Positions 6,068 through 21,717 of a DNA stretch of 32,070 nucleotides are shown in pieces; the stretch's first letter is position 1; the number at the start of each line of letters is the position of its first letter. A model generated the notes under the pieces. It saw only the letters and a list, made by a program, of their open reading frames with translations, was not told where the DNA came from and ran no database searches. Origin of the DNA: Bigelowiella natans CCMP2755. Taxonomy: Eukaryota > Protista > Cercozoa. The translations under genes were made by a program, and so were the position numbers. The stretch spans positions 1-32,070 of the forward strand of contig ADNK01003347.1 in the NCBI GenBank assembly GCA_000320545.1, written 5' to 3'.

Positions 6068-6632
6068 TGTCACTCGTCGTCCGGATTGTGAGTTACTACT
6101 CTCGTCGTCAGCGGTTTGAAAAAAATGAGATGATTTTTAAAACAAATTGTGATGATTTCGATGCTGCGTCACATCCATAAGCTTGTCGCAGTCTAAATAA
6201 TGCCGAGCATTTTCAGGAAAAATCGAAGAAAAATCGACACATACACCCCTCAAGTTGTGTGTGCTTTGGTGATAAAAATCAATTCAATTTTTTTCAAGAA
6301 TCGTTGTTATGATCGATGTTCAATACAAATCTAAGAGGAAAAGCCACCCTCGTGACTCAAAACCCCCCCGCCCACCACCGCATCGCGAGCCAATGGGGTG
6401 CAACTCGAGAGGGTCACTCGAGTTTTTCACTAGAGCAAGTGAAAGAAACGAAGGACTGACTCACCCGTCTCTCAGGGGCTCCAAGTCCAACCTTTGGTGG
6501 GCCAAAGAAATCTTTCGACGGAAAAGCGCTCTCTTCTTGGTGCCCTTCCTGCGCAAAGGAGTTTCGCAAAATGATGAACAACTGATGAGCACAGAATGTT
6601 CCAACCCGACGTTTATTCGCGATAAACGTACA

Positions 6633-7092
6633 ATTGGATTGGTCCTAGATGTTTTTCCCCTGCATATTGATGATCTGTGACAAGACGTTTTATGAAGGAG
6701 GGTACCCGTAGCAACTTGTCATTGAAACGAATTTTGTTAGGAGCTAAAACTTTTCTTCAGTTATGAAACTGCGGGATTTATAGACAGTTTTTCGAGGATG
6801 AGGGTGGGTATTGTAGGGTTCATGGCTGAAATCGCATGAATTCCAGTTTTGCGTCAATGTCTCGACAAAACGGACAACGTTATGTTTCTCCAGACAAAAA
6901 GCTCCCCAAAACCCAAATGTGCACATGCATCTGGAACGTTCTAGCTTCGTACGAGTAGTGCACGATGAACGCAAGATTGGATTGGTTTTGGATGTATTCC
7001 CCCTGCATATTAATGATCTGTGACAAAAGACGTTTCGTCAAGGAGAGTGCTCGTAGCAACTTATAGAAACGAATTTTGTAAGGGGCTGAGCT
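6633..7092. repeat. Diverged ~115-bp direct repeat (6633-~6746 and 6976-~7092) in a divergent intergenic region
   Basis: attggattggtcctagatgtttttcccctgcatattgatgatctgtgacaagacgttt...cgtagcaactt...gaattttgt versus attggattggttttggatgtattccccctgcatattaatgatctgtgacaaaagacgttt...cgtagcaactt...gaattttgt. Confidence 0.85.
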
Positions 7093-7253
7093 AGACACCA
7101 TAACTCAAAACTACTCAAGTTCGCAGACAGCTCGCCAAGGTACGGCTTCGGCTTCGGCTCCCTAGCGTCCAGACTGCTATTCGTCGTGAGAAGATATAAT
7201 ATTGCTCACATTCCCCTTTGCGGAAGTAACGTTTTCATTTTTTGTCTCAGATC

Positions 7254-9585
7254 ATGGATTCACTCAAGCCAACTCAGCAGCAAATGACAATCGCTCGCAA
7301 GCGCCTTCCAATTTTCGAATTTCTGTCTGATGCCGATCTCAAGCAAGTCCTTTGCTTCTCGAGCCCATCTGAGGCTAATTCGTTTGGGCTCTTCCCCAAG
7401 ATCGCAACTTTTTCAACCGTGGTCGTCGATCCTGAGACTGAATCGATCATCGGGGTTAAGAACTGTGCTGGCAAAGCTGGTGAAGAGATGATATTTTTGA
7501 AGCCTATAAATACGAAAGGACGTCACCCACTTGATTGGATTTGTGACGTAATTGCCACGGTTCCCGTGGAGATGCGAGCCCAGTTTTTAGCTGCCTGGGA
7601 GGGTATGCAGAACCTGAAAGGTGAAAGGAACAAAAGCAGGGGATACAATTCGCAAGAGCTGTCCGAGTTTCCCGAACCAATTGTTCTATTGCTCCTACGA
7701 GTTAAGTTCACGCAGGATGTCGACGCAGCACTCCGCAGCGGCAAGCTCCAGTCTCTTCAGAGCTTGGATAAGTGCCTAATGCAGAGGATATTTCAGATCT
7801 CCATGACTGTGAGAGATCAAGCGAAGAAGATATCTCGAAAAGGATCGAGCATAATTACCTTGTTGTTTGGACAAGTACGGCAACTCAGAAAGCTAATCAA
7901 GTATGCTAAGATTTCCACTTACGTCGCGACTTGGGAATTTTGGAGGTCTCAGCTGCGTTATTATGTCAAAGCCAGTGGCAATGCCGCTAATATCGAGGAA
8001 AAGTACAACTCAAAGGAGAATTCGATCACGAAAACTATTCTAAGCGTTCGCTGCGGTGAATCTGTCGAAATTCCTTATGGCTTCCAATATGGCAGTCACA
8101 GAATGCTTGTGCAGACTGATCTTACCCATGAAGCTTACGCCACGGCGATGAGCGCTTTTGAGGCCGGAAAGAATAGACTGGTGGTAGTCAACGGGCCAGT
8201 GGGAACAGGGAAAATTGAGGTCTTGAAAGATCTGGCAAATGCGCTTGGCATCAACTGCTATCTGTACAAGCATTGTAGCAGCAGGAAAAGTGACCATTCG
8301 GCTTTAATTTTGGCTGTGAGTCGAAACCCGAACATGATGTTCTTGTTCGAAGGATTGGATAAAGAAGGTGCCGAGGTGATCCAGGCAATTACTTCTGCCA
8401 ACGATGAGAAAGATATTGCTACTCGTACTGGTCTTATTTGTGTTGTTGGAAACCTTGATAAAAAGGAAGTAAAAGAGTCGCTCGGAAGTCTCCCAGCTTG
8501 TGCAACTCAGATGATGACGACACCAGACCTTGTTCGTATATACGAGGTAATTGCCTCACAGTATAATCATTGATGTGTGGAATTGCTACAACACAAGCAT
8601 CAGCACTTAAATTTTACTTCTTTTTCAGTTTGAATTATGGCATTGATTTGTTGTTGTTTGTCATTTTGGCCAGGTGATGCTTGCTATCGAAGGATTCACC
8701 ACTCCCGAAACGGTTGCGGTTGAATTGAATAATTTCTTAGTAAAGGCCCGAGAAACTTTCTCCGAGAAATCTTGGTACGATTACGGTCTCCGCACTGCCA
8801 AGGTTCTCATTAAGACTGCTGGTGCATTTCTTCGATCTTCTAGATCAATTAAGGATGAAGCAGAGGCGAAAAAAGAACGGAAAGGTCTCCATGATGCCTT
8901 GTGCGCCTCAATCCTACCGTCCTTGGTTCCTGCGGATCTTACTTTGGCGTCTGGCCAGCTTCATGCACAATTCCCTACATTTCCACCATTTCCTTCGAAT
9001 AAAAACGACACGAGAGGCGTCGAAGAGCTGATGTCTATGCTATCAAAGTCGGATGCCAAGAAAATGACAAAGCTGAAAGGTGATGTAGGAACGAAGTTCA
9101 GTATGATCCAATTTTCAGTCATGTCCAAGATCCGTCACGGATTGCTTGCACTAAGCGATTCACCGAAGTACTTGCTACATGCACTCTCGACACTCGCATC
9201 ACTGGTTGGTGTCAATTTCTCACTGATCAACCACGACAATCTGACTACTGCTGAGCTCTACGGCGCCATGACGGAGGATGGGGAGTGGCAACGTGGAGTT
9301 CTTGCAGAACGCATGATGTCTGCTGCGAATAAAGACGGAGCTCCTACCTGGATCGTGTTGGAAGGTAAAATGGATCAAGTGAAGCTGCAACCACTCTATT
9401 CTATTCTTGACGACAACAGAAAGTTGTTCCAGGAAAATGGAAGTGTCGTTTCTTTGCCAAAAAACGCCAATGTGGTCCTGATCAGTACGCCTGATGAAGT
9501 TGCCAAGTGGAAACCTGCAGCTATATCGCGTGTGGGAGTCGTTCACTTTATCGATAATGAATCAGGCCGCTGTTCCGTGATGTGA
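7254..9585 (+). CDS. Truncated dynein heavy chain-like protein (linker C-terminal part + AAA1 + lid + AAA2), 734 aa, C-terminal CaaX (CSVM)
   Basis: Exons 7254-8546 and 8674-9585. The intron gtaatt...ggccag joins YE|VMLAIEGF. Dynein-like motifs: RKRLPIFEFLSDADL (cf. R..FPRFYFLSD.DL), FWRSQLRYY, YGFQYG..LVQTDLT, GPVGTGKIEVLKDLANALG, PDLVRIYEVML..EGF, YDYGLR, RHGL, ELYG...GEWQRGVL, WIVLEG.MD, ILDDNRKL..ENG, PAAISRVGVV. Probable 5'UTR intron at 7140-7250. Confidence 0.88.
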
Positions 9586-10027
9586 GCAAACGACAAATTA
9601 TCCAAAGAATGAAAACAGCAGTTACGACAAAAATGCTGTGTCGTTCGAGCATTCCATCGTTTGTTGTTGTGATGTCAAAATTGTAATCATGGAAATCAAT
9701 TTAAATAATAGACATAGTAATATCATATATAATATATATGGTTGTGCTAAACTGTGTACGCGAATAGATAAAGCCTTAATGGCAATATTAAAGTACAAAA
9801 ACGCGTAAATCTTAAGCATTAGCTTTATAATGAGAACTAGTTGGTGAAGCTGGCATGGTTTAAATCTGGTAGCATGGCTCAGATCCAGGCATATAGATTG
9901 TTATATAGCAACATCATCTTAGCCTCACAATATACCACATACATGTATATATACATACATATATGATGCAATCAATCATACGACTTCATCATCGCACCCT
10001 CTGCTTAATGATCGCTTTTCAAGAAAA

Positions 10028-10414
10028 ATGTCCTTTCCTTCAAAGAAGCGTCGAATGGAGCTTTCCTGTGACAACAAAGATTCACAGGACGTAAAAAAGC
10101 TTGAGCAGACAATTCTAGATCTTCAGGTGGAAAACAAAGACATGGAGAGAAGGATTGTGGATCTTGAGTTGGAAAACAAAGACATGGAGAAAAGGATCAT
10201 GGATTGTGAGTCCGAACAAAAACGTTTAGAGGAAGATTTGGAGAACAATGAGGCTCACATCAAACATCTTGAGAAACAAATCAATCCCAACAAACACAAA
10301 GAGACCGACGAAAAATCGGTGCAGGACAGCGACGAAAGCATTTGCTCTTTTCATTCATGGCGTCATGAAGACCTGTCCAGTGTCTTCTCTGATCAAATCA
10401 CAGACGGGAGTTGA
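10028..10414 (+). CDS. Small intronless coiled-coil protein with basic NLS-like N-terminus (possibly mutated relic)
   Basis: 128-aa ORF, PSKKRR at the N-terminus, duplicated heptad unit DLQVENKDMERRIV / DLELENKDMEKRIM, zero Tyr, TGA stop. Confidence 0.5.
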   Translation: MSFPSKKRRMELSCDNKDSQDVKKLEQTILDLQVENKDMERRIVDLELENKDMEKRIMDCESEQKRLEEDLENNEAHIKHLEKQINPNKHKETDEKSVQDSDESICSFHSWRHEDLSSVFSDQITDGS

Positions 10415-10655
10415 AAGTGACCCAAATGGACTGTCAAATGCATGAAGGTTGTCATCACGCTCATTTTCTTTCACACTTCATGCCCACAGCAAGCATGTGC
10501 CAGATTGAAGCGCAGCGCTGCGCAGCACAGCTTCAAATGACGCTTCATTGTCTTGGCGCAATGTTCAATGGTTTGGCATCAATCGCGCGTCGCTGCGTCA
10601 CTCAGTGCAGTCAAGAAATTGTCAGCGTGCTTCTGTCCAATGTCGCTCCTAATGC

Positions 10656-10871
10656 AAGCCACGTGGCTTTGCATTGGGATCATTTTTGACGTGTCTGCAT
10701 GGCTTTTCCTGGGTCAGCCACGTGGCTTGCAGAGAAGTTGAAGTGAGTGCACCACATGGTGTTTCCTGGGTCAGCCACGTGGCTCATTGAGAAGTCCAGG
10801 TGAGTGCATCACATGGCTTTGCCGGGGTCCACCACGTGGCTCATTGAGAACACTGGTCAAAAGCCACGTGG
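10656..10871. repeat. Tandem ~57-bp repeats carrying five palindromic CCACGTGG (G-box/E-box) cores
   Basis: Cores near 10659, 10718, 10775, 10832 and 10864. Unit approximately catggcttttcctgggtcagccacgtggct..gagaagt...gtgagtgca.ca. Perfect 14-bp palindrome AAGCCACGTGGCTT at 10656-10669. Confidence 0.85.
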
Positions 10872-10969
10872 TTCATTCTGTTGAAATCCAAGGTGCGGCC
10901 CCTCACTTCCTCTTCAACCAAAGTCCTCACAACTCAAACCCCTCACCTACCTACCCAACCCAAAACATC

Positions 10970-11530
10970 ATGGTGATGTCCAGGAAAAGAAAAGCCGACC
11001 GAGTTCCCGACCGAGTTCCAAACGTTTTCCCGCCGTGGATGGTGATTGATCTCACGAACAGTGACAGTGAGGACGAGGAGGAAAACAAAACCATTGACCA
11101 ATTTGCAGAAGAGGTCCGTCGTGAAAGGCTTCGTGCAAAAGCGCCGGTGAGGCCTGCACTGAAAGGATCCGGATCAACTGAAAATGCAGCTGAAGAGGAG
11201 AAGATCAAGTGTGTGCTGCCTGATGAACTCAAGAAGTGTTTGCATCATGCCCAGACTTGCAAATCTTCATCCAAAGCTCAATTGCGGAGATTCAAAGAAG
11301 AGACATTCGAACCACATTTTGAATGCAATGACGAGGACAATGGACATGAGACCATGGTCCATCTCTACAAGACAAGAGAAAAAATGACAAAAGAGGATGC
11401 CATGGATCTTGGGAGAGTTTTTGATGACAGACATGAAACTGAAAGTGACACAGATGCAAATTCTGAACAATTTGTCCTCATCACGCTTGACATCAACCTC
11501 TGTGTGTGTTGCATCATGAAATTCAAATGA
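10970..11530 (+). CDS. Intronless nuclear-type hypothetical protein (NLS + SUMO-interacting-motif-like), possibly hypermutated relic
   Basis: 186 aa from ATG 10970. SRKRK followed by VIDLTNSDSEDEEE. Composition is 1 Tyr versus 7 Cys and 6 His. Confidence 0.5.
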   Translation: MVMSRKRKADRVPDRVPNVFPPWMVIDLTNSDSEDEEENKTIDQFAEEVRRERLRAKAPVRPALKGSGSTENAAEEEKIKCVLPDELKKCLHHAQTCKSSSKAQLRRFKEETFEPHFECNDEDNGHETMVHLYKTREKMTKEDAMDLGRVFDDRHETESDTDANSEQFVLITLDINLCVCCIMKFK

Positions 11531-12050
11531 CGCGAAACACGGTGTGCATGAAACAAGTGTCCCTTTTGGAATGCGCACATGTCGTGGGCTTGCAATCTAC
11601 ATGCACAATGCCAAAATGAAAAGCTACATCTTTTACAAGGTGTTCAAAATGAAGCGCTTCATCAAGTTTGCATTGTGTTTGCGCATCGCTGCCAGTCACT
11701 GCATGCACAGCAAAAGACACAGAAATGACAACTTGTGACATGGAGAAGGCACATTTGGGGCTTGTGAGGTGAAGAAGGACTATTGCTCGGGGGCCCAAAA
11801 AAGGGCTTGTACTTATAATAGACATAGTAATAGCATGTATAATGTATATATGATCTTAGAGATACGCATATACCGGGCGCGCCTGCGCAACAAGAGCGCG
11901 CATGCCCAATTCGCTGGCATAGCTCATCGATCTGCTGTGACACGCTCTCGCACACGCACATCATCATTTGAGCGATGTACGATATGGACTTGCATGGCAT
12001 GTACGACGCTGAATTGTGCTGAATGTGATACTTTCGCAAATACAACGTAT

Positions 12051-13438
12051 TTAATCCATGAGCAAGCCAGCTTCCTCTAAACTCTTTGTGATGATGATAT
12101 CCTGGCAGGTGTTGAAGACTACCGTCACATTTCCTGTGTCGGTGGCGTTTGTGATGTGGGTGTAGATCTGCTTGCGATTATTTTTGTTTTTATCGGTAAA
12201 CTTCTGCCGTATAAAGGCAGAAGCACTATCAAAGTCGTTGTCCCCGTCATAATCATCGAAACAGACGCTTAAATGCACGTGGGGTAGCTTCTCCAAGAAG
12301 AGGTCACTCTTGTTAAGGAACAAGATCATGTTTGTCCTGGTAAACCATTTTAAGTTGCAAATTTCCTGGAACAATCGCAGGGATTCATGCATCCTGTTCA
12401 CGCTTTTGTCTTCGTACAATATCTGGTCATACCCACTGATGCATGCATAGAGCAGAGGCCAAGCAAAACAGCAATTTCGTAAAGTTAGCACTCAGTACGA
12501 TTTGTTGACCAACGCATAGCAAACTAGTATGAAGTCTCCCTTCGGGCTCACTTCACTCCCGCCCGCCCCCTTTCTCTTTTATAAAATGGAGCTGACTAGT
12601 TCAAGTTTGCCTTACCTCAACGATATGACGAATATCACCGCAGTTACATTCTGGAAGAGATGTATCCATTTCTCTCGCTCTAAAACCAATAAATAATATC
12701 CGTTATGACAGATACAGGTCACTCCCCCATCAGGGAGAGCCCCACCCTTTGCCACCCCAATCTCCGCATGAATTTGAAACAACATTTGGAAATTATCGTA
12801 GCTAAATGTATTGGAAGATAGCGCGCCCACCGTTTCGTTGACCCCCGACGTCGAAGAGCCTAAATTGATACTTCTTGTGCACGTACGTATGCTCTAATAT
12901 CCCGGTGGTTCTCACACGAGACCTGAAAACGTCCTGCAGACTTGGGATGTAGTCGGGCTTCCAAGTCTGATCTAGCCTCCCGAAGAAGTACTCCGCCGAA
13001 TCCGCCAGGGAAAAGCGGCCGCGGAACTTGAGCGTGTGCCTTATATTCTTATCTGCCCAAATTATCTTCATTTTTCTGCAGATGTCCTCGGTCAGTACGT
13101 CGTCAAGGGGCCGCAGCTTGAGGATGTCCTCTTTGCACTGGATGGCCTTCTTGTCCGTCATTTTACATTTCGCAAGCTCGTTAATTTTATCTGCACCTTG
13201 ATTTCCTGTATTTTCTCCATAGAAATCGGATGCACGGCACAAGTCTTGCATGGCTAATATAGTGTTGGAATGGATAATCGCTTTGTACAACTTCCGCTCC
13301 TCTGGAGGGAAGCCCTTGCCGTGCATGGAAACCATCTGCTTGTAAAGGGTGCTCTTTCCGCTCTCCCCAGCTCCGAGAAGTAGTAGTGTGTGTACATTAG
13401 ACTTCTTTTTACTTTCCCTGTGAGAATATTTTCATTAG

Positions 13439-13479
<41 letters not shown>

Positions 13480-13638
13480 CACCGCACAATACATTATTTG
13501 AAGGGGAAAAGTGAAACCGTTCATGGTTGATGGCTGGTCAAGGATGTAAACAAACCCCTTCAACTGTTCGTCGAGAATTTTGTCCTGCTGTTTCTGCTCT
13601 CGGCTGGCTTGGACTTCATTTGAAGAGCACACTCCCAT
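12051..13638 (-). CDS. Heterotrimeric G-protein alpha subunit, 372 aa
   Basis: Exons 13638-13556, 13417-12831, 12679-12616 and 12435-12051. MGVCSS (myristoylation/palmitoylation-type N-terminus), LLLLGAGESGKST, RSRVRTTGI, FDVGGQRNEREKWIH, ILFLNKSD, HITNATDT. Confidence 0.97.
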
Positions 13639-14128
13639 GGAGGTGTGTGCTGCTAAGTCTAGCCTAGACTCCCTCCGACCTTTTCATTGAAAAGTGGAAA
13701 TTATTCGCCCCCAATCAAAGAACGTGTGAAAACTAGGATGGAATATGAATCCAGACACTGATTCCCCCACCAACCCCCTGACCCCAGCCACCAACCTCTG
13801 CCAGCTGTAAGCAGTGGAACCTATATTCCAAACACGGTGCCTGAGTATCTGAGATTTTCCCAAGACAGTCATTAGGAAACGCCCTACATTAAGGGGATTT
13901 TGCAATCAGTTTACGGGAAAATTCACCCTACGTACTACGATTGGAAAACCTCAATTAGTAGAGAAAACACAGTCCAGCGCTAAGTCGTCCTTCAGAAACG
14001 GGGGAGGCAAAAAGCGTAAAAAGCTGCTGCATTTACGTTACGAATCGAAGGGAAAAAAAACGATATTTTATTTTCTACAGGATCTCCAAAATAAAACCTC
14101 GGCATATTTGAAAATTCGAAAATAAGCG

Positions 14129-14785
14129 ATGATGGCCAAGGTGGGTCCGCCCCCCCCGCAGACGTTTGTTACGTGGAGAAATGGCGCTGCGACCGATTGG
14201 TGTGAGAGATGACATATATACGATAACCCCCCCTTCAGAATTCTCGGATCGTGGGATTTGCTATCGCATGCTTGGCTTCCTTTTGCGCCGCTGAAGAGCA
14301 ACAATCGCTCGAGCCTTCGGCCGTTGTTGACCAATGCTCATCCGCCTGCGCCACGCTCTCCCAGCTCAAAGAACAGCAGGGGTAGTGCCCCCGGATCTGT
14401 TGGAATGATATGATTTTACGTTCCACTTTTTTATGCGCGCCCTGACTGTCCCGCAACACGCAGGTACGTGAATAAATTCTTCGCGAAGGCCAAATCGTGG
14501 GGCGCTAAGGAGTTTGGAGAAGACCTAGCGAAAGTGCACTTCATTGGTAAGTATAATGAAATGTGTAATTATAAATAGAAGTACAAATATGAATTTACGA
14601 ACATAAATATGCAAAGCATACTGTTATTATTTTGGGAAATATCAATACGCGTAAAGTATCTACATCAGCTTACATGTGGGTTGCGTTTGTGGTTGTTTGT
14701 GCGTACGTATGTGAGTGCTTACAACATGTTGCGTGAGTGTTTGATAATTTTTTGACTTTATATATGTGTATATATATACATATAC

Positions 14786-14824
<39 letters not shown>

Positions 14825-14858
14825 TATATAAATGTATTATTTCTTTTGGAGTGTGTAT

Positions 14859-14904
<46 letters not shown>

Positions 14905-15191
14905 TGCCTGAGGTCGTAACAGTTGCTACCCCCCCCTGCCATGAGTTCTCTCATGAAATTGTTTTTTTGTTTTGAAAAATGTATTATGGTTTATTAGGCT
15001 TTGACAAGCTAAAGAGCCGCTTCTCAGAACAGCTTTCACGCGTTGGGGAGACATTCCCCGCACTTGTGAAGAAAAATATAAACAGCACCACAAGATTCCG
15101 ATCAAGCACGGCTAACTCGGATACACGTAATAATTTTCCCATGCCGCTTCAATTCGCTACTTTCTATTGCAAAATATACGCATAAGATGTT

Positions 15192-15230
<39 letters not shown>

Positions 15231-15539
15231 TGCCATTTTGATTTAATGGGTTAAATTAAAAAATGCATTGATACCTTTCTCCAGTTTTTACAAACTCACA
15301 CGCGATTCCTCTCTTTGCAGCGCCAGGGCCTACATCCGGCCCATACGACGACTTAGATGACTACGACTTCCCAGAAAATGTTGGAGGAGATTACCCTGAT
15401 GCATACACGGAAGAAGGGGGGGATGTTTTTGGAAATTACGTAGTCCAATCATGGTGAGAAACAACACTGAAAGCCACCAGTTCCCGAGATTTTGCATTAT
15501 ATTAATTAATATAAATGTAGATATGAGTAGGAAATATAT

Positions 15540-15577
<38 letters not shown>

Positions 15578-15960
15578 GTGTGTGTGTTTGATCCCTGGCA
15601 ATTTTTGCATAGGTATGCGGATGATGAAACTATCCAGCCTTTCATTCGTTTCAAGCAGCAGAGCCAGAAGGTCGCACTCCCAGTGGTTTGTACGCGCTAC
15701 TGGCCGTACTTCAAGAGAGTGAACCAAGAGATCGAGCACAAAATGGTACGTAACTATCAGCTCTGAAATCCTTAAATATCTCTTTTCCTCCCCCCTGTCC
15801 GTGTGTAATCTGCGTCCTCTATTTCCCGCACAAAGCGTGTCGTGTCAGCACTTATCTAATCTCTCATAAAATCGGTCTATTCTGATGGAGGACTAAAAGC
15901 AAGCAAATTTTTCAGGAGGCAAATAGTGGGAAACTCACTGGCTGCAACAAGTGTGAATGA
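14129..15960 (+). CDS. Hypothetical protein with N-terminal signal peptide, ~225 aa, 7 exons (not visible as one ORF in the track)
   Basis: Exons 14129-14140, 14239-14381, 14464-14546, 14998-15126, 15321-15453, 15613-15745 and 15916-15960 are phase-consistent (678 nt). Starts MMAKNSRIVGFAIACLASFCAA|EEQQ. Acidic Tyr/Asp-rich middle. Could alternatively end at 15766 if the last intron is retained. Confidence 0.7.
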
Positions 15961-16649
15961 GATGCGCCTCATTTTATGCTGTCAACAATAAATGAACGGC
16001 CAAAATTACAATGACGCCAGAACATTCCTTATATGTTCAATGTCTACCCATTTTAAGTTTGATGTTTGCACGCACAAGTGTAAAAATTTCATGTAGCATT
16101 GTTATGACATTAATATTCTCTGAGAGCGCGCATGTGCACCAGCCTGCAATCTGTGAAGACCAGTAAATAATTATTCATCAAGGCTGCTTAGTCTAGCAGG
16201 CTAGCAGGGCCAACACGCGCAAATGGACGCCACAATGCGGCCTTGAAGCGAAACCGAAGGCGCGACGACATACTGAACATGCAGCCGCCGCCTAGCCGCC
16301 GCACAGTCCAAGAATATACGCATCCAATGCCACCATGGCCATGCTAGCATGTGCGAGATAGCGCAGCACGCAGCTTTACAGCGCCGTGCGTCTACTGAGC
16401 TAAGCGAAGCTGGCACACGCCACGGCGCATGCTTACGATACGCATGGTATTTACCACCGCGCCGAGGCTACATTAGGCGAGCTGGACTGCATCGCAAACT
16501 TTTCGCACATAAACACTCTCCATCTGACACCGCACACTGCGCATAGGAGAATAATTTTATTTTGTGCATCCATACAATGCGTCGTCTAGCATGGCATCTA
16601 ATCTCATTTTCGTTTTGTTCATTTAGCGTTTCATATCCATCACTACCGC

Positions 16650-19226
16650 TCACCATCCGTCTGCATTGCCGCTGTGTCGGAGAGCCCCCGACAGAGCCGT
16701 CGCGCCTCCACCAACGCCCTCTTGTTTGGCAACGCAATCGTCGCAAACACGCTCTAGCTTCCCCTTGGACCATGGCGTTTTCTGTCGATTTTTAGAACAC
16801 AGCCCGCAGACGACTTTCCCGCAGAGTCGGCAATGATGTCGTCTGCTGCGGAAAGGGAAAAATCCCTCAAATGAGATCGGGCTTCCATACCGCCTCTTGC
16901 ACTCTGACCCCACCATGCAGTGTATCACTTCGTGGTCTGGCACCCACCTCGGTTTGGCCATCGCTTGTGGGGGGGGAGTCCACACCTTCCCGTCTGCATT
17001 GTTCGGTACAAGCCGTTCGATTGGATATGCGGGTACAGTTTGCGGGCCAACTACGACGCCCACTCCCTCGCTGAGTTTTTTTGCAGCTTCATGATCGAGT
17101 TCTCCGGGAAGATGGAGCTTTAAGAGCTTGCATAGTCTCCCACACTCATGACCAGCGAAGAAAGCCGCCATTCCAGCTCCTCCCAGATTGCCTCTCCCGT
17201 ACTGCGTGCGATCAGGGTGCATGACTTGAAGGTCTGTGAGAACTACCTCTTCGCTTGTCATGACCCCTTGGAGATCAAGCACCATGTGCTCCCCTGCGCT
17301 TTTGCACCACGTCCAATGTGAGAAGGTGTTCATGGCTTCCGCATCCTCGTTCCGATCGCACATCCCGCCGTTGTTGTTGAACTTGCGGAATTTCGCTTCC
17401 TTGGGCAGGAAGCTCTCAGCCATGACCCACTTGGCATTCACATCTTGCCGGTCTGCCAAGTGCAGCACCACAGGCTCGAGCACCCGGACTGGACGCAGCT
17501 CCGCATCTTGAAAGGCTACATTCTGGTTCCATTCGTCTGCCAGCGCGCGCGCCCGATGATGGCAGTTCAAATCGCCGAACATGGCTTCCCTGCTGTTGTA
17601 CCCCACACCATTGGAGAGCCCTTCCTTGCATACCAAGAATTTTTCGCTCAGGCAACTAGGCACCGCACAACCCTTTTGGTTGGCCGAATACTGAACGCCA
17701 TGATTCTGGATCCGATACGCTGCCCGCATCGCACCCACCGCAAATGGCTCCTTTGGAAATGTGACACGCATCACTCCGATCGACCTCCCCTCGGAACTCG
17801 TAGTGAACACCTCCGCGCGCTCAGCTTTGCTTTCATTGCTGCTGCTGATTACGATCTGCTCGTAACGAGGCGCGCTAGGCGCAAAGATGTCCTCAACCGC
17901 AGCATTAGCTTCACCTTCCTCGATCTTTTTCATGATGCTGGTAAACTTCTTTTTCCGCCGTCGGAACGCCACCCTCCCAACCCCCTGGCTCCCGAGCCTC
18001 CGTACCGAATCCGCCGATATGCTGCGCGTAATGGAATCGATGCACAACTTCGCAAAGAGGGTGGTGTCGTCGCCGATTTGATGCTGGTGAAAGACCCAGT
18101 CCTTGTCGTTGTATGCTTTTTGAAGGAGCCCAACCATTTTGTCCGTCTCATGTGAGATGCGAAAGAAGTGGAGATTCACTTGTTTTTTCTTAAGGCTATT
18201 GACTAATTGGCGTGGATCGCGGCCCCGTGGGTCACCTTCTGGATGATTTTCATCCTCACCATAGTTGTGGTACATAGTCCCGTGGCAAGGTTGGTCGGCG
18301 ATTATTATGGCGACACGTGTCACCTCCACGCCTTTTCGTCTGGATTGCCAGCCAATGTTACACGCGTCGTGAAGTGCACCGGTCAGGTCTTCGGGATCGT
18401 CGAGTGAATACTTCTCCACCTCGCCGTTTTCCTTCTTCTTCTCCCTCATGTTCGCCTCGGCTCTAAGAGAGTTGAGGAACACATGGAGAACTTTCTGGTC
18501 GTCGGTGAAGCGTAGTATCTCCCTCGGTTTCTGATCCTCAATATCTCGGTAGCCAATCACCGCGATGCGGAGGTTAGCACGAGTAAATTTTTTCCTAAGT
18601 CCGGATATTACACTTGAAACCTGCGTTTTCGCAGCCTGAATGTGCGGCTTCATAGATTGCGTGCAGTCTATAACGAAGACAACATCGAGAGGGATAGATC
18701 CAACCCCCCTATCTTTTGCCCGCTGAACTTCGTTATTCAGTTTTCGGTCTCGCTCCATTAGTCGTTTCTGACTCTTCTGCTTAAATACATGTTTAGAATC
18801 CAACCGACTTGGGGTTGCAAGCAAACTCGTCGCAGCCCTGTTGTCTCTATCACTCGCAGCAGCAGATATGTGCCGAGCCTTGGGTTCTGTGGCATTGTTG
18901 GAAGCACGAGCTCTGGTCAATTGACTCTGCAGAGTTCTCACGCGTTTTTCGCTCACGGCTAGCTTCTCTTGCAGCTTTTCTTGCAGCTTTTTATGCTCGT
19001 TATACATATCTCGCCATTCCCTGATCACTGCCTTCAGAGCGTGGTTAGGGATGAGTGATGAGGAGGAGACAGTCTGGTTCGTGTTTGGATCTGTTAGTCT
19101 CTGCTTGTACCACAGTTCTATTTCCTTTTTCTCATATGTTTGCCCCACCACGTTTATGTGAGGATCAACCATGAGAGTTGATGATATCGGACAGCAGAAA
19201 CTCGGTAGAGCACCATCTTCATCCAT
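16650..19226 (-). CDS. Intronless U-box + coiled-coil + VWA + alpha-kinase + FYVE protein, 858 aa
   Basis: U-box: FCCPISSTLMVDP...GQTYEK..I..W...DPNT...LIPNHALK. VWA: DVVFVIDCTQSM, AVIGYRD, DDPEDLTGAL, IIIADQPCHG. Alpha-kinase: PFAVGAMRAAY, VCKE, KFNNNGG, FSHWTW..S..HMVLDLQGV, LTD, GNLG..GM..FF..HEC..LC. FYVE: WVPD, RRHHCRLCGKVVCGLCS, RVCDDC. Confidence 0.93.
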   Translation of the reverse strand: MDEDGALPSFCCPISSTLMVDPHINVVGQTYEKKEIELWYKQRLTDPNTNQTVSSSSLIPNHALKAVIREWRDMYNEHKKLQEKLQEKLAVSEKRVRTLQSQLTRARASNNATEPKARHISAAASDRDNRAATSLLATPSRLDSKHVFKQKSQKRLMERDRKLNNEVQRAKDRGVGSIPLDVVFVIDCTQSMKPHIQAAKTQVSSVISGLRKKFTRANLRIAVIGYRDIEDQKPREILRFTDDQKVLHVFLNSLRAEANMREKKKENGEVEKYSLDDPEDLTGALHDACNIGWQSRRKGVEVTRVAIIIADQPCHGTMYHNYGEDENHPEGDPRGRDPRQLVNSLKKKQVNLHFFRISHETDKMVGLLQKAYNDKDWVFHQHQIGDDTTLFAKLCIDSITRSISADSVRRLGSQGVGRVAFRRRKKKFTSIMKKIEEGEANAAVEDIFAPSAPRYEQIVISSSNESKAERAEVFTTSSEGRSIGVMRVTFPKEPFAVGAMRAAYRIQNHGVQYSANQKGCAVPSCLSEKFLVCKEGLSNGVGYNSREAMFGDLNCHHRARALADEWNQNVAFQDAELRPVRVLEPVVLHLADRQDVNAKWVMAESFLPKEAKFRKFNNNGGMCDRNEDAEAMNTFSHWTWCKSAGEHMVLDLQGVMTSEEVVLTDLQVMHPDRTQYGRGNLGGAGMAAFFAGHECGRLCKLLKLHLPGELDHEAAKKLSEGVGVVVGPQTVPAYPIERLVPNNADGKVWTPPPQAMAKPRWVPDHEVIHCMVGSECKRRYGSPISFEGFFPFRSRRHHCRLCGKVVCGLCSKNRQKTPWSKGKLERVCDDCVAKQEGVGGGATALSGALRHSGNADGW

Positions 19227-19440
19227 GCCTTCCTAAATTGATCCACATTTAGTCTCTTCAAAATGGTTGAATAAACGAATGAATGAACCAACAGCACTGA
19301 CGCAGTTACTACATGCGCCTTTGCAAGCAGTCGCGCCTCAACTAAAAACACCTTTGCGGTGGTGGCTTCGTCCAGCGTAGCTAACCTGCACGAATAGCTG
19401 GGAATCCTCAGAAGGACTGCTTGAGCTCAGGGTCGATCGG

Positions 19441-21360
19441 GTGTCATGTCACGACAAACACACGCAATTCTACGTCAAATTCGGCGTCGAATTTGTCCGA
19501 ATTGGGAAAAAGGGAATCCTTCTCACCAAAACACCGCATGATGCCATCCTTCTCACCCGCTTGTGGTTGAAACGGAGGCCAAAGCAGGGAAGCGGCAAGG
19601 CCGGCCAGAAAATTCTTGTCCAGCAACATTTTGGTCGACATTTCGACGAAAAACCACCCTCCGTTTTGTTTTCCACGAAACAACGGCATGGAAAATGAAG
19701 AACAGGATGCAGAGGTCTTCACACTGTCAAAGAGCCCCAACAGCAAAAAACACGGAACAACAGCATTTTCCCTGGCTAGCTAGCCAGCGGGGGGTGGAAG
19801 TGCGAGGTGTTCGCTGTTGTGTTTCTGCAGGCGCCAGGGTTTCAGCTGCTTCACTGCGCCCTGCTGCACGCACCCCGCCTGCTAGAAGCTCCACGTTCAC
19901 TCTGCATCGACCTGTTTCGCTGAAAGTGAGGAATTTTCCTCGTTGCCCACTGCAAAGCTCAACATATCAAACCAGTGCTCAAACCGTGTTCAAGTGTCAC
20001 CAACTGCAACCAAGAGGTGTTTCAACTTTCCAAGCTTGGTCTGCGTCACGTGCTAGCTAGCGTGGCTGCCTGGGGGGTGCAAAGTGACAAAGTGTGACGA
20101 TCATGGGCCAAGTTGGTGCAGTTGAGGAACGACGCACTTCTGTGTTGTCAACTTTTTGCCAAAAAACCAATGCTCCAATGCACACGAAGCTTCGGTGCAA
20201 CGTTTCTAACTGTCATCTGATGGTGTGACTTGTTTCCCATCAAAACTTCGATGGCCAACTCTCAAGAACAAAAGTTTCGATTTTTTGGGTGCTTCAGCCT
20301 AGCAGCGTGCAGCAAACGAACGTGGGTGGGGCTGGCTCGTTTTGGTGACTTTCTCCAGTTCTTGAGAAAATCATTGTTTTTCACTTCGACGTGGGAACTA
20401 GCTGGGCCCGTGCAGACTGCCATGCTGAAGACCTCATCGATCGCCAAAAAAATCAAAATTGCAAAAGTTCACAAAGGTCCTCATCAGGTTTCAAGCGCAG
20501 CCGGCAGCGCTGGAGCGCTTGAGCGACCGACTGCGACACGTCTGGCCACTCCAGCATTGCTGCCATGGCACGAGTGAGCATTCGACAGCCACCGCTAGCT
20601 AGCTGATCAGGCGTTTGTGCCGTTTGCATGAGTCAGGGCAGGAGGTGATCACTCGCCCTTGCCTCCACAACGTTGCGCGTTTGTGCGTGCTCTGCTTGTC
20701 ACTACTTGCTAGCTTGCTGCACGCACGATGACACCTTGCATGTCCATCATCACGCACACACACCCCGTGCTCGGAAAAAGCAAATTGCATCACTTTGGAC
20801 GGGTCAGGGGTCAAAGAAACGCACGCCCATGGCCTTACAGTCTGTGGGCCAAGGCGACGCAGGGGAGACGGACGAGGAACAGGTGAGGGTCTCGCGCAGG
20901 GAGACGGGAGTTGATCTCAATGAACTTGGAACGTGAGTCCTTGTTCATCCTTTCTAGCTTTGTTGGGGAAGTGGCTCTGCATGTTGATGCAGTCGGGCGG
21001 GAGCAAGCAATTGCAAGACACGTGTGTGGCCCAAAGGGATGTGCTTGGTTGCAATTCGCTCTAGCAGTCGGCGGCGACGGCTGATGCGATGCAGCGCGAG
21101 CTGCAGGTAGATCTGCTGGAGGAAGGCTAGAAGGGCACATCAAACACTTTCCTGCTAGTCTGTCCACTGGCGCACACAAACGCACATGAACGCACAGACA
21201 GGCATCCCTCCCACCACACACGGTCACTGCATGGTCATCTGCATGACATCACACACATCGTCTAGTCTAGCTTTGCAGGCTGCGAAAACTAGCTTGCAAA
21301 AAAACGTGATCCCCATTGCTCAATTTGTAGCTAGCTATCGTGATAAGGATGGCTGCACAG
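19441..21360. other. TpA-depleted, CTAG-rich non-coding island, probably degenerate repeat/transposon DNA
   Basis: Hand count of about 23 TA in 19441-21300, about 17 of them in CTAG. No credible protein. Near-palindrome caaattcggcgtcgaatttg at ~19476-19495. Confidence 0.7.
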
Positions 21361-21717
21361 ACTAGTGCACAACATTGAATATTGATTTAACATTTTCATC
21401 GAGAAGCTATCATTGGCCTACAATGTTGCAACCATACTTACATTTCTAGTCTCTTGGTGCATCCGGTTATGGAATCGTCAGGATATTTTCATTAAATACG
21501 TTTACATGCATACCCAAGTACACACACGAAATATTTGACTTTTTCACGACAAGATAGTATAGGACGCAATGAGAACTGCACATCTTCGACGAAATCTGCA
21601 AACGTTCGATCCAAGTAGGCCTTCCCGAGAACATGAAGCATAAGTAATTACAGAACGGATTGACGAAGTGCCACTTCGAAATATAAGATGACCGAAGTTG
21701 ATGACGATCGATCTCTA

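Follow-up and report, generated by a model that had tools for sequence, protein, structure and literature searches.

The DNA analysed here, henceforth referred to as the window, is a stretch of 32,070 nucleotides from Bigelowiella natans CCMP2755. Its features are listed in Table 1. A 125-bp duplication (6620-6745 and 6963-7087, 81% alike) was also observed upstream of the dynein-motor-like gene (7230-9585).

Table 1 Features of the window, with the basis of each assignment.
Feature	Position	Strand	Basis
Left host gene, dynein-motor-like, partial AAA_6 matches, divergent, normal TA	7230/8647..9585	+	Pfam, TA content
Left copy of a TA-rich repeat, short, high-copy, truncated, TA intact	9705..9740	+	contig depth
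Island 1, relic of an element, TpA-depleted, intergenic, flanked by convergent host genes	10021..11780	.	TA count, RNA depth
ORF1, 128 aa, coiled coil, internal 14-aa repeat, Tyr absent, in the single-copy part	10028..10414	+	
Multi-copy part, further copies in the genome diverged and rearranged	10370..11860	.	contig depth
Three tandem 57-bp units	10698..10868	+	100, 82, 61% identity
ORF2, 186 aa, no known family, Cys/His opposite Tyr of a paralog	10970..11530	+	matches to B. natans models
Right copy of the same TA-rich repeat, truncated	11814..11858	+	contig depth
Right host gene, G-protein alpha subunit, normal TA	12051..13431	-	Pfam, TA content
Island 2, single-copy, near-silent, TpA-depleted intergenic, no recognisable gene	19400..21300	.	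TA count, contigs

Both open reading frames of island 1 are present letter for letter as entries in EukProt. Pfam gave weak coiled-coil matches to ORF1, all below cut-off, and a homologue search returned none but ORF1 itself. ORF2 matched solely B. natans gene models (Bigna1 names), here called P0001 (93%), P0002 (72%) and P0005 (64%, at its C-terminus). These matches make the window almost certainly nuclear DNA of this species. Relatives of ORF2 outside B. natans numbered 0 among 1.84 billion representatives and 0 in the ESM Atlas, and none was confirmed among 243 pattern matches in viral contigs and 588 in metagenome contigs. The part of island 1 that holds most of ORF1 (10021-10370) is single-copy, yet it contains 3 TA in 350 bp. 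Over 10370-11860, summed contig depth, which does not equal copy number, was ~1.3-20x that of the flank, with 101-125 contigs per DNA run. Differing places among the copies were transitions in 139 of 183 cases (DNA run X9).

Island 1 contains exactly 10 TA dinucleotides compared to 123 expected from composition (observed/expected, O/E, 0.081; 0.66 for the whole window), giving a Poisson p of ~2e-23 even under the window-wide rate. TG (n = 164, O/E 1.69) and CA (n = 179, O/E 1.49) are raised, together to 1.58, and their counts are strand-symmetric. The edges of the island are sharp and its flanks TA-rich, with 13-20 TA per 100 bp at 9651-9950 and 11751-11900. Eight of the ten surviving TA stand in CTA or TAG, as do 487 of 1334 in the remaining window (p 0.006). 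At the protein level, ORF1 and ORF2 together hold 1 Tyr in 314 aa, whereas four host ORFs have 42 in 1828 aa (p 0.006), and the stop codon of each is TGA. The initial annotation had reported about 10 TA in 1760 bp, a local loss between TA-rich flanks, abundant TG and CA, eight of ten survivors in CTA or TAG, a single Tyr and two TGA stops, all of which were reproduced. It had also described CpG as not lost, which required correction, as a mild deficit was found (O/E 0.63 vs. 0.91 for the window).

Contigs of a public run (X1) showed 0 differences from the window over 9400-10481, 10604-10791, 10919-11113 and 11770-12300, so the TA loss is not an assembly artefact. None of the pieces listed covers island 1 end to end, and the public runs are possibly from the window's own strain. 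The presence of the sequence in public runs, a check proposed in the initial annotation, was observed in contigs (not raw DNA reads). RNA depth was 0-2.4 over island 1 and 72-76 over the left gene (~6/100 of a single RNA run, X24).

Simulating a TA mutator gave a dinucleotide profile that agrees in most respects with that of island 1, including the mild CpG deficit. Simulated values were 0.10 for TA, 0.65 ± 0.07 for CG, 1.67 for TG, 1.17 ± 0.04 for AA, 0.81 for CC and 1.16 for GA; the corresponding values of the island are 0.08, 0.63, 1.57, 1.25, 0.80 and 1.21. Misfits were seen for AG (0.81 simulated vs. 0.92 observed) and AT (1.01 vs. 0.88). As the simulation demonstrated, conversion of TA to TG or CA adds C and G, and CpG O/E therefore drops by arithmetic alone.

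The direction of change in natural copies is fixed by a TA-intact paralog. The C-terminus of P0005 (Bigna1/70730, named for scaffold 13) is a copy of ORF2, 102 residues long, with Tyr at 9 of 102 aligned positions; P0005 is known here as a protein model rather than as DNA, and its TA-intact state is read from the Tyr codons. Opposite these nine Tyr, ORF2 of the window carries 1 Tyr (in CTAC context), 4 Cys (TGY), 3 His (CAY) and 1 Phe. Across the three other copies, 20 of the 24 non-Tyr residues at these positions are Cys or His (p 7e-7 against a null share of 2 in 6, taken from single changes of a Tyr codon), and 4 are Phe or Trp. Cys in one copy is matched by His in another at 5 of the 9 columns, indicating independent changes on opposite strands of a TA, and wherever a mutated copy has Tyr, P0005 has it too. 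The initial annotation had read the Cys/His runs of ORF2 as former Tyr, and P0005 indeed has Tyr at the motifs it named. The unmutated copy is also not equally TA-poor, an outcome that had been put forward as contrary to the proposal, since P0005 is Tyr-rich and TA-intact at those codons. In the gene model, this TA-intact copy is fused to residues 1-900 of P0005, which are Tyr-rich and fall in no known family. P0005 gave 0 Pfam matches above cut-off and 0 matches in viral contigs, and its atlas matches were all <0.8, so that a viral label for residues 1-900 gained no support. Its first 100 residues contain 0 Tyr and 5 Cys/His and are perhaps a partly mutated edge.

Differences among copies point the same way, as had been predicted for a TA-directed mutator. 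Exchange among TA, TG and CA can reach 10 of the 12 residue differences between the window and P0001 and 18 of the 31 between the window and P0002, where rough nulls are 0.10 for all single changes and 0.31 for transitions. At the DNA level, the best-supported 40 of 207 difference rows, with 4 rows in the flank repeats set aside, gave 36 differing places inside island 1. Transitions account for 31 of these, and 28 of the 31 fall on TG, CA or TA (0.41 expected, p 2e-8). The 28 comprise 6 adjacent TG<->CA doublets, 12 singles for which the other copy has TA, 3 for which it has CG, and 1 TA->TG; the remaining differences are 1 CG->TG, 2 further transitions and 5 transversions. Some apparent single differences are halves of doublets (11360, judged by P0001). 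TA pairs have been lost to TG or CA on both strands.

The signature has been reported before in this species, contrary to the initial annotation, which knew of no described system with it. Of 302 nuclear SNMs in B. natans mutation-accumulation lines, 231 fell in two viral inserts (Mettrop et al., bioRxiv 10.64898/2026.01.13.699255, henceforth the preprint). These changes, confined to a subset of the lines, had a rate of ~6e-7 per site per generation and were essentially all TpA->TpG or TpA->CpA; GC-biased changes were all on TpA, and the rate of TpA hypermutation was ~1000-fold above background. The changes originate in situ in chromosomal DNA, including in a single-copy silent insert (10.64898/2026.01.13.699255). 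The preprint lists 324 TpA-poor CDS and 124 TpA-poor clusters, finds transposon Pfams and RT domains enriched in TpA-poor genes, extends the target range to transposons and unannotated genes, and proposes an adenosine deaminase as the agent, with the ADAT2-like Bn78255 as candidate. No other report of the TpA->TpG/CpA signature in a protist was found in a literature search mostly outside subscription journals.

Island 1 is almost certainly a scar of this already reported process, and the phenomenon is not new here. The islands resemble the viral inserts in species, in TpA->TpG/CpA change on both strands, in the silence of the target and in having no need of repeats. They differ in being <2 kb, near saturation and without a recognisable viral gene, with TpA O/E of 0.08 and 0.22 compared to 0.45 for the NCLDV insert (10.64898/2026.01.13.699255). 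Clusters in the preprint are defined by rho <= 0.43 for TpA and >= 1.52 for CpA+TpG in three consecutive 1-kb windows. Island 1 as a whole passes both cut-offs (0.081 and 1.58); only 1 of the 32 1-kb windows here passes both, and by this rule neither island would be scored as a cluster. Two short islands occupy ~11% of the 32-kb window, suggesting that small targets are missing from the published count of clusters. New relative to the main text of the preprint are the silent single-copy island 2, the flank-graded survival of TA, near-saturated islands of <2 kb and the polarising TA-intact paralog; the words CTAG, trinucleotide, context, flanking and Helitron each occur 0 times in that text. 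Gene models in TA-poor islands are stripped of Tyr and may be relics.

Island 2, which is unrelated to island 1 in sequence, retains 23 TA (O/E 0.22), and its CpA+TpG value of 1.45 is below the second cut-off of the preprint. It was covered by one contig with 0 differences in both of two DNA runs, and its relatives were limited to three of 49-65 bp. RNA depth was 0-3.4, compared to 24-76 for the neighbours (one RNA run, ~6/100 read), and the right edge falls just short of the poly(A) site of a minus-strand transcript at 21344. Pfam gave 0 matches in 6 frames. The AT value (O/E 0.68) is off the TA-mutator simulation. Of the surviving TA, 17 of 23 are in CTAG, compared to 59 of 1334 in the remaining window (p 7e-19). 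The island is rich in GCTAGCTAGC motifs, with 32 C-YR-G sites in 1.9 kb, and selection on the GCTAGC motif may account for the survival of CTAG there.

With the two islands pooled, the share of TA among TA/TG/CA sites rose stepwise from 4/440 with no C/G flank to 11/237 with one and 18/42 with C..G (Fisher p 0.004 and 5e-10), compared to flat shares of 0.26, 0.25 and 0.28 in the remaining window. In island 1 alone, TA survived at 8 of 118 sites with at least one such flank and at 2 of 235 without (p 0.003). Only 1 of its 10 C-YR-G sites keeps TA, and the strong CTAG figure therefore rests mostly on island 2. As to which flank protects, the products are symmetric (113 CTGH vs. 113 DTGG; background 657 vs. 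641). Flank-dependent survival is a pattern that candidate enzymes must reproduce.

Contig depth over the repeat that flanks island 1 reached 7978, compared to 61 for the flank (run X9), or ~130x. The right copy has TG at 11836-7 and 11843-4, where A makes up 3466 of 3873 (89%) and 1889 of 2297 (82%) depth units, respectively (X9). Since the left copy and most others have TA, these two sites are polarised as TA->TG. This very high-copy TA-rich repeat has otherwise largely escaped TA loss. Its pattern gave 0 matches in metagenome contigs, and no published description was found in the same literature search. A role of the two copies as a target-site duplication was set aside, as they are members of a very high-copy family. 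Loose ends show that other copies are extended by the start in inverted orientation, as in a hairpin or MITE-like unit; the repeat is also present in RNA reads derived from other copies.

No transposase, RT, Rep or viral match for the element was found in Pfam, viral and metagenome contigs or the ESM Atlas. When 12 read-through frames were compared with Pfam, coiled coil was the only result, with no Helitron, Replitron, MITE or retroelement enzyme. An RT or a poly(A) end was not found in the element, and Rfam gave 0 matches over 9500-21600. A short GC hairpin at 11792-11805 (fold z -1.2), ~10 bp to the left of the right flank repeat and within the most highly repeated stretch of the element, resembles a rolling-circle transposon end. 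The hairpin and the flanking direct repeats are at most suggestive of element termini. From dispersal, position and silence, we infer a foreign origin of the element.

The initial annotation likened the process to fungal RIP, and the likeness stands for the effect on both strands and its saturation: in each case dinucleotide-specific transitions on both strands saturate silent DNA and spare genes. RIP, however, is C->T and lowers GC, whereas the islands here reflect A->G, and the TpA gain of RIP is replaced by TpA loss. Fungal RIP requires duplicated DNA. This part of the comparison fails, as the ORF1 part of island 1 (10021-10370) and island 2 are depleted and single-copy at 80% likeness, with lost or more diverged copies being possible. 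Deamination of A to I by ADAR and TadA/ADAT enzymes gives A->G and favours T/U before A (PMC10661471). According to the same source, ADAR acts on dsRNA with UAG as a hot spot, whereas TAG is a spared context here.

Taken together, island 1 is probably a silent repeated element in which TA was changed on both strands by the reported B. natans process, likely through a host adenosine deaminase. That a host process converting TA to TG/CA lies behind island 1 is nearly certain; given such a process, the deaminase step is somewhat favoured. The candidate enzyme would be directed to silent inserted DNA and would deaminate the A of TpA to inosine, to be read as G at the next replication. With either strand open to attack, TA would become TG or CA, and because neither would still be a target, the process would run to saturation and strip the sequence of its Tyr, TAA and TAG codons. 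The process would be slowed by a 5' C or by a 3' G, most strongly by both together (CTAG), and targeting would follow silencing rather than copy number. The targeted both-strand TA->TG/CA mutator of silent, repeat or foreign DNA proposed in the initial annotation fits all tests run. Its putative role in genome defence is drawn from these patterns, and the process likely disables foreign DNA. Among eukaryotes, a genome-defence mutator that makes A->G changes in chromosomal DNA is unusual.

The same target could have been altered by other chemistry, namely an error-prone (pol-eta-like) polymerase, or a mispairing modified thymine (T->C at TpA), acting during repair of silenced DNA. By sequence, A->G on one strand is indistinguishable from T->C on the other, and patch-like, both-strand action fits repair synthesis. 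Pol eta prefers WA. AA is not consumed in island 1 (O/E 1.25 vs. 1.17 ± 0.04 simulated), and AA->AG makes up only 1 of 31 transitions in the best-supported 40 of 207 rows. Moreover, all GC-biased changes in the preprint are on TpA (10.64898/2026.01.13.699255). These observations weigh against pol eta and not against a thymine-modification route, and other chemistry as a whole is considered unlikely. Far less probable is that an RNA intermediate underwent ADAR-type editing and was fixed by retroelement reverse transcription. The preference for U before the edited A and the RT domains among TpA-poor genes would suit such a route (10.64898/2026.01.13.699255). The strand symmetry of TG (164) and CA (179), the silence of the element and the lack of a detected RT or poly(A) end in it are at odds with the proposal, as are a 5'UAG hot spot (PMC10661471) that is spared rather than preferred here and the changes arising in a single-copy silent insert (10.64898/2026.01.13.699255).

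Two further explanations dispense with a TA-directed process. If CpG methylation and deamination had made the TG/CA excess, with TA scarcity secondary, the CpG O/E of 0.63 would be accounted for, the TG<->CA doublets could derive from ancestral CG, and the 4 singles with CG in one copy, among the best-supported 40 of 207 rows, would be expected. Simulated CpG mutators, however, left TA at 0.72-0.87, and in 13 singles of the same rows one of the copies carries TA. Where other copies have Cys/His, the paralog has Tyr rather than Arg, which refutes this explanation for ORF2; its overall probability is almost nil. A source intrinsically poor in TA, or selection against UpA, draws on the fact that no free-living source was found for comparison among viral and metagenome contigs and representatives. 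It is contradicted by the Tyr-rich paralog in the same species, which refutes it for island 1, by the same loss in the unrelated island 2 and by conserved Tyr whose replacement, Cys or His, varies from copy to copy; it is accordingly very unlikely.

Beyond island 1, the host TA->TG/CA process may sweep any silent intergenic insert (<2 kb, viral or not, of any copy number) to saturation, stopping near transcribed gene ends and following a four-base code that spares CTAG. This wider reading is held tentatively, at somewhat below even chances. If true, the CTAG-sparing code would be a fingerprint identifying the enzyme and excluding ADAR-type and pol-eta-type agents.

A third candidate island at 17000-17750 was rejected (O/E 0.38, GC 0.55, coding, 1 of 14 TA in CTAG). 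Directly left of island 2, at 16650-19232 on the minus strand and with 0 RNA reads on its first 130 bp, lies an intron-free frame of 860 codons with U-box, vWA, alpha-kinase and FYVE domains.
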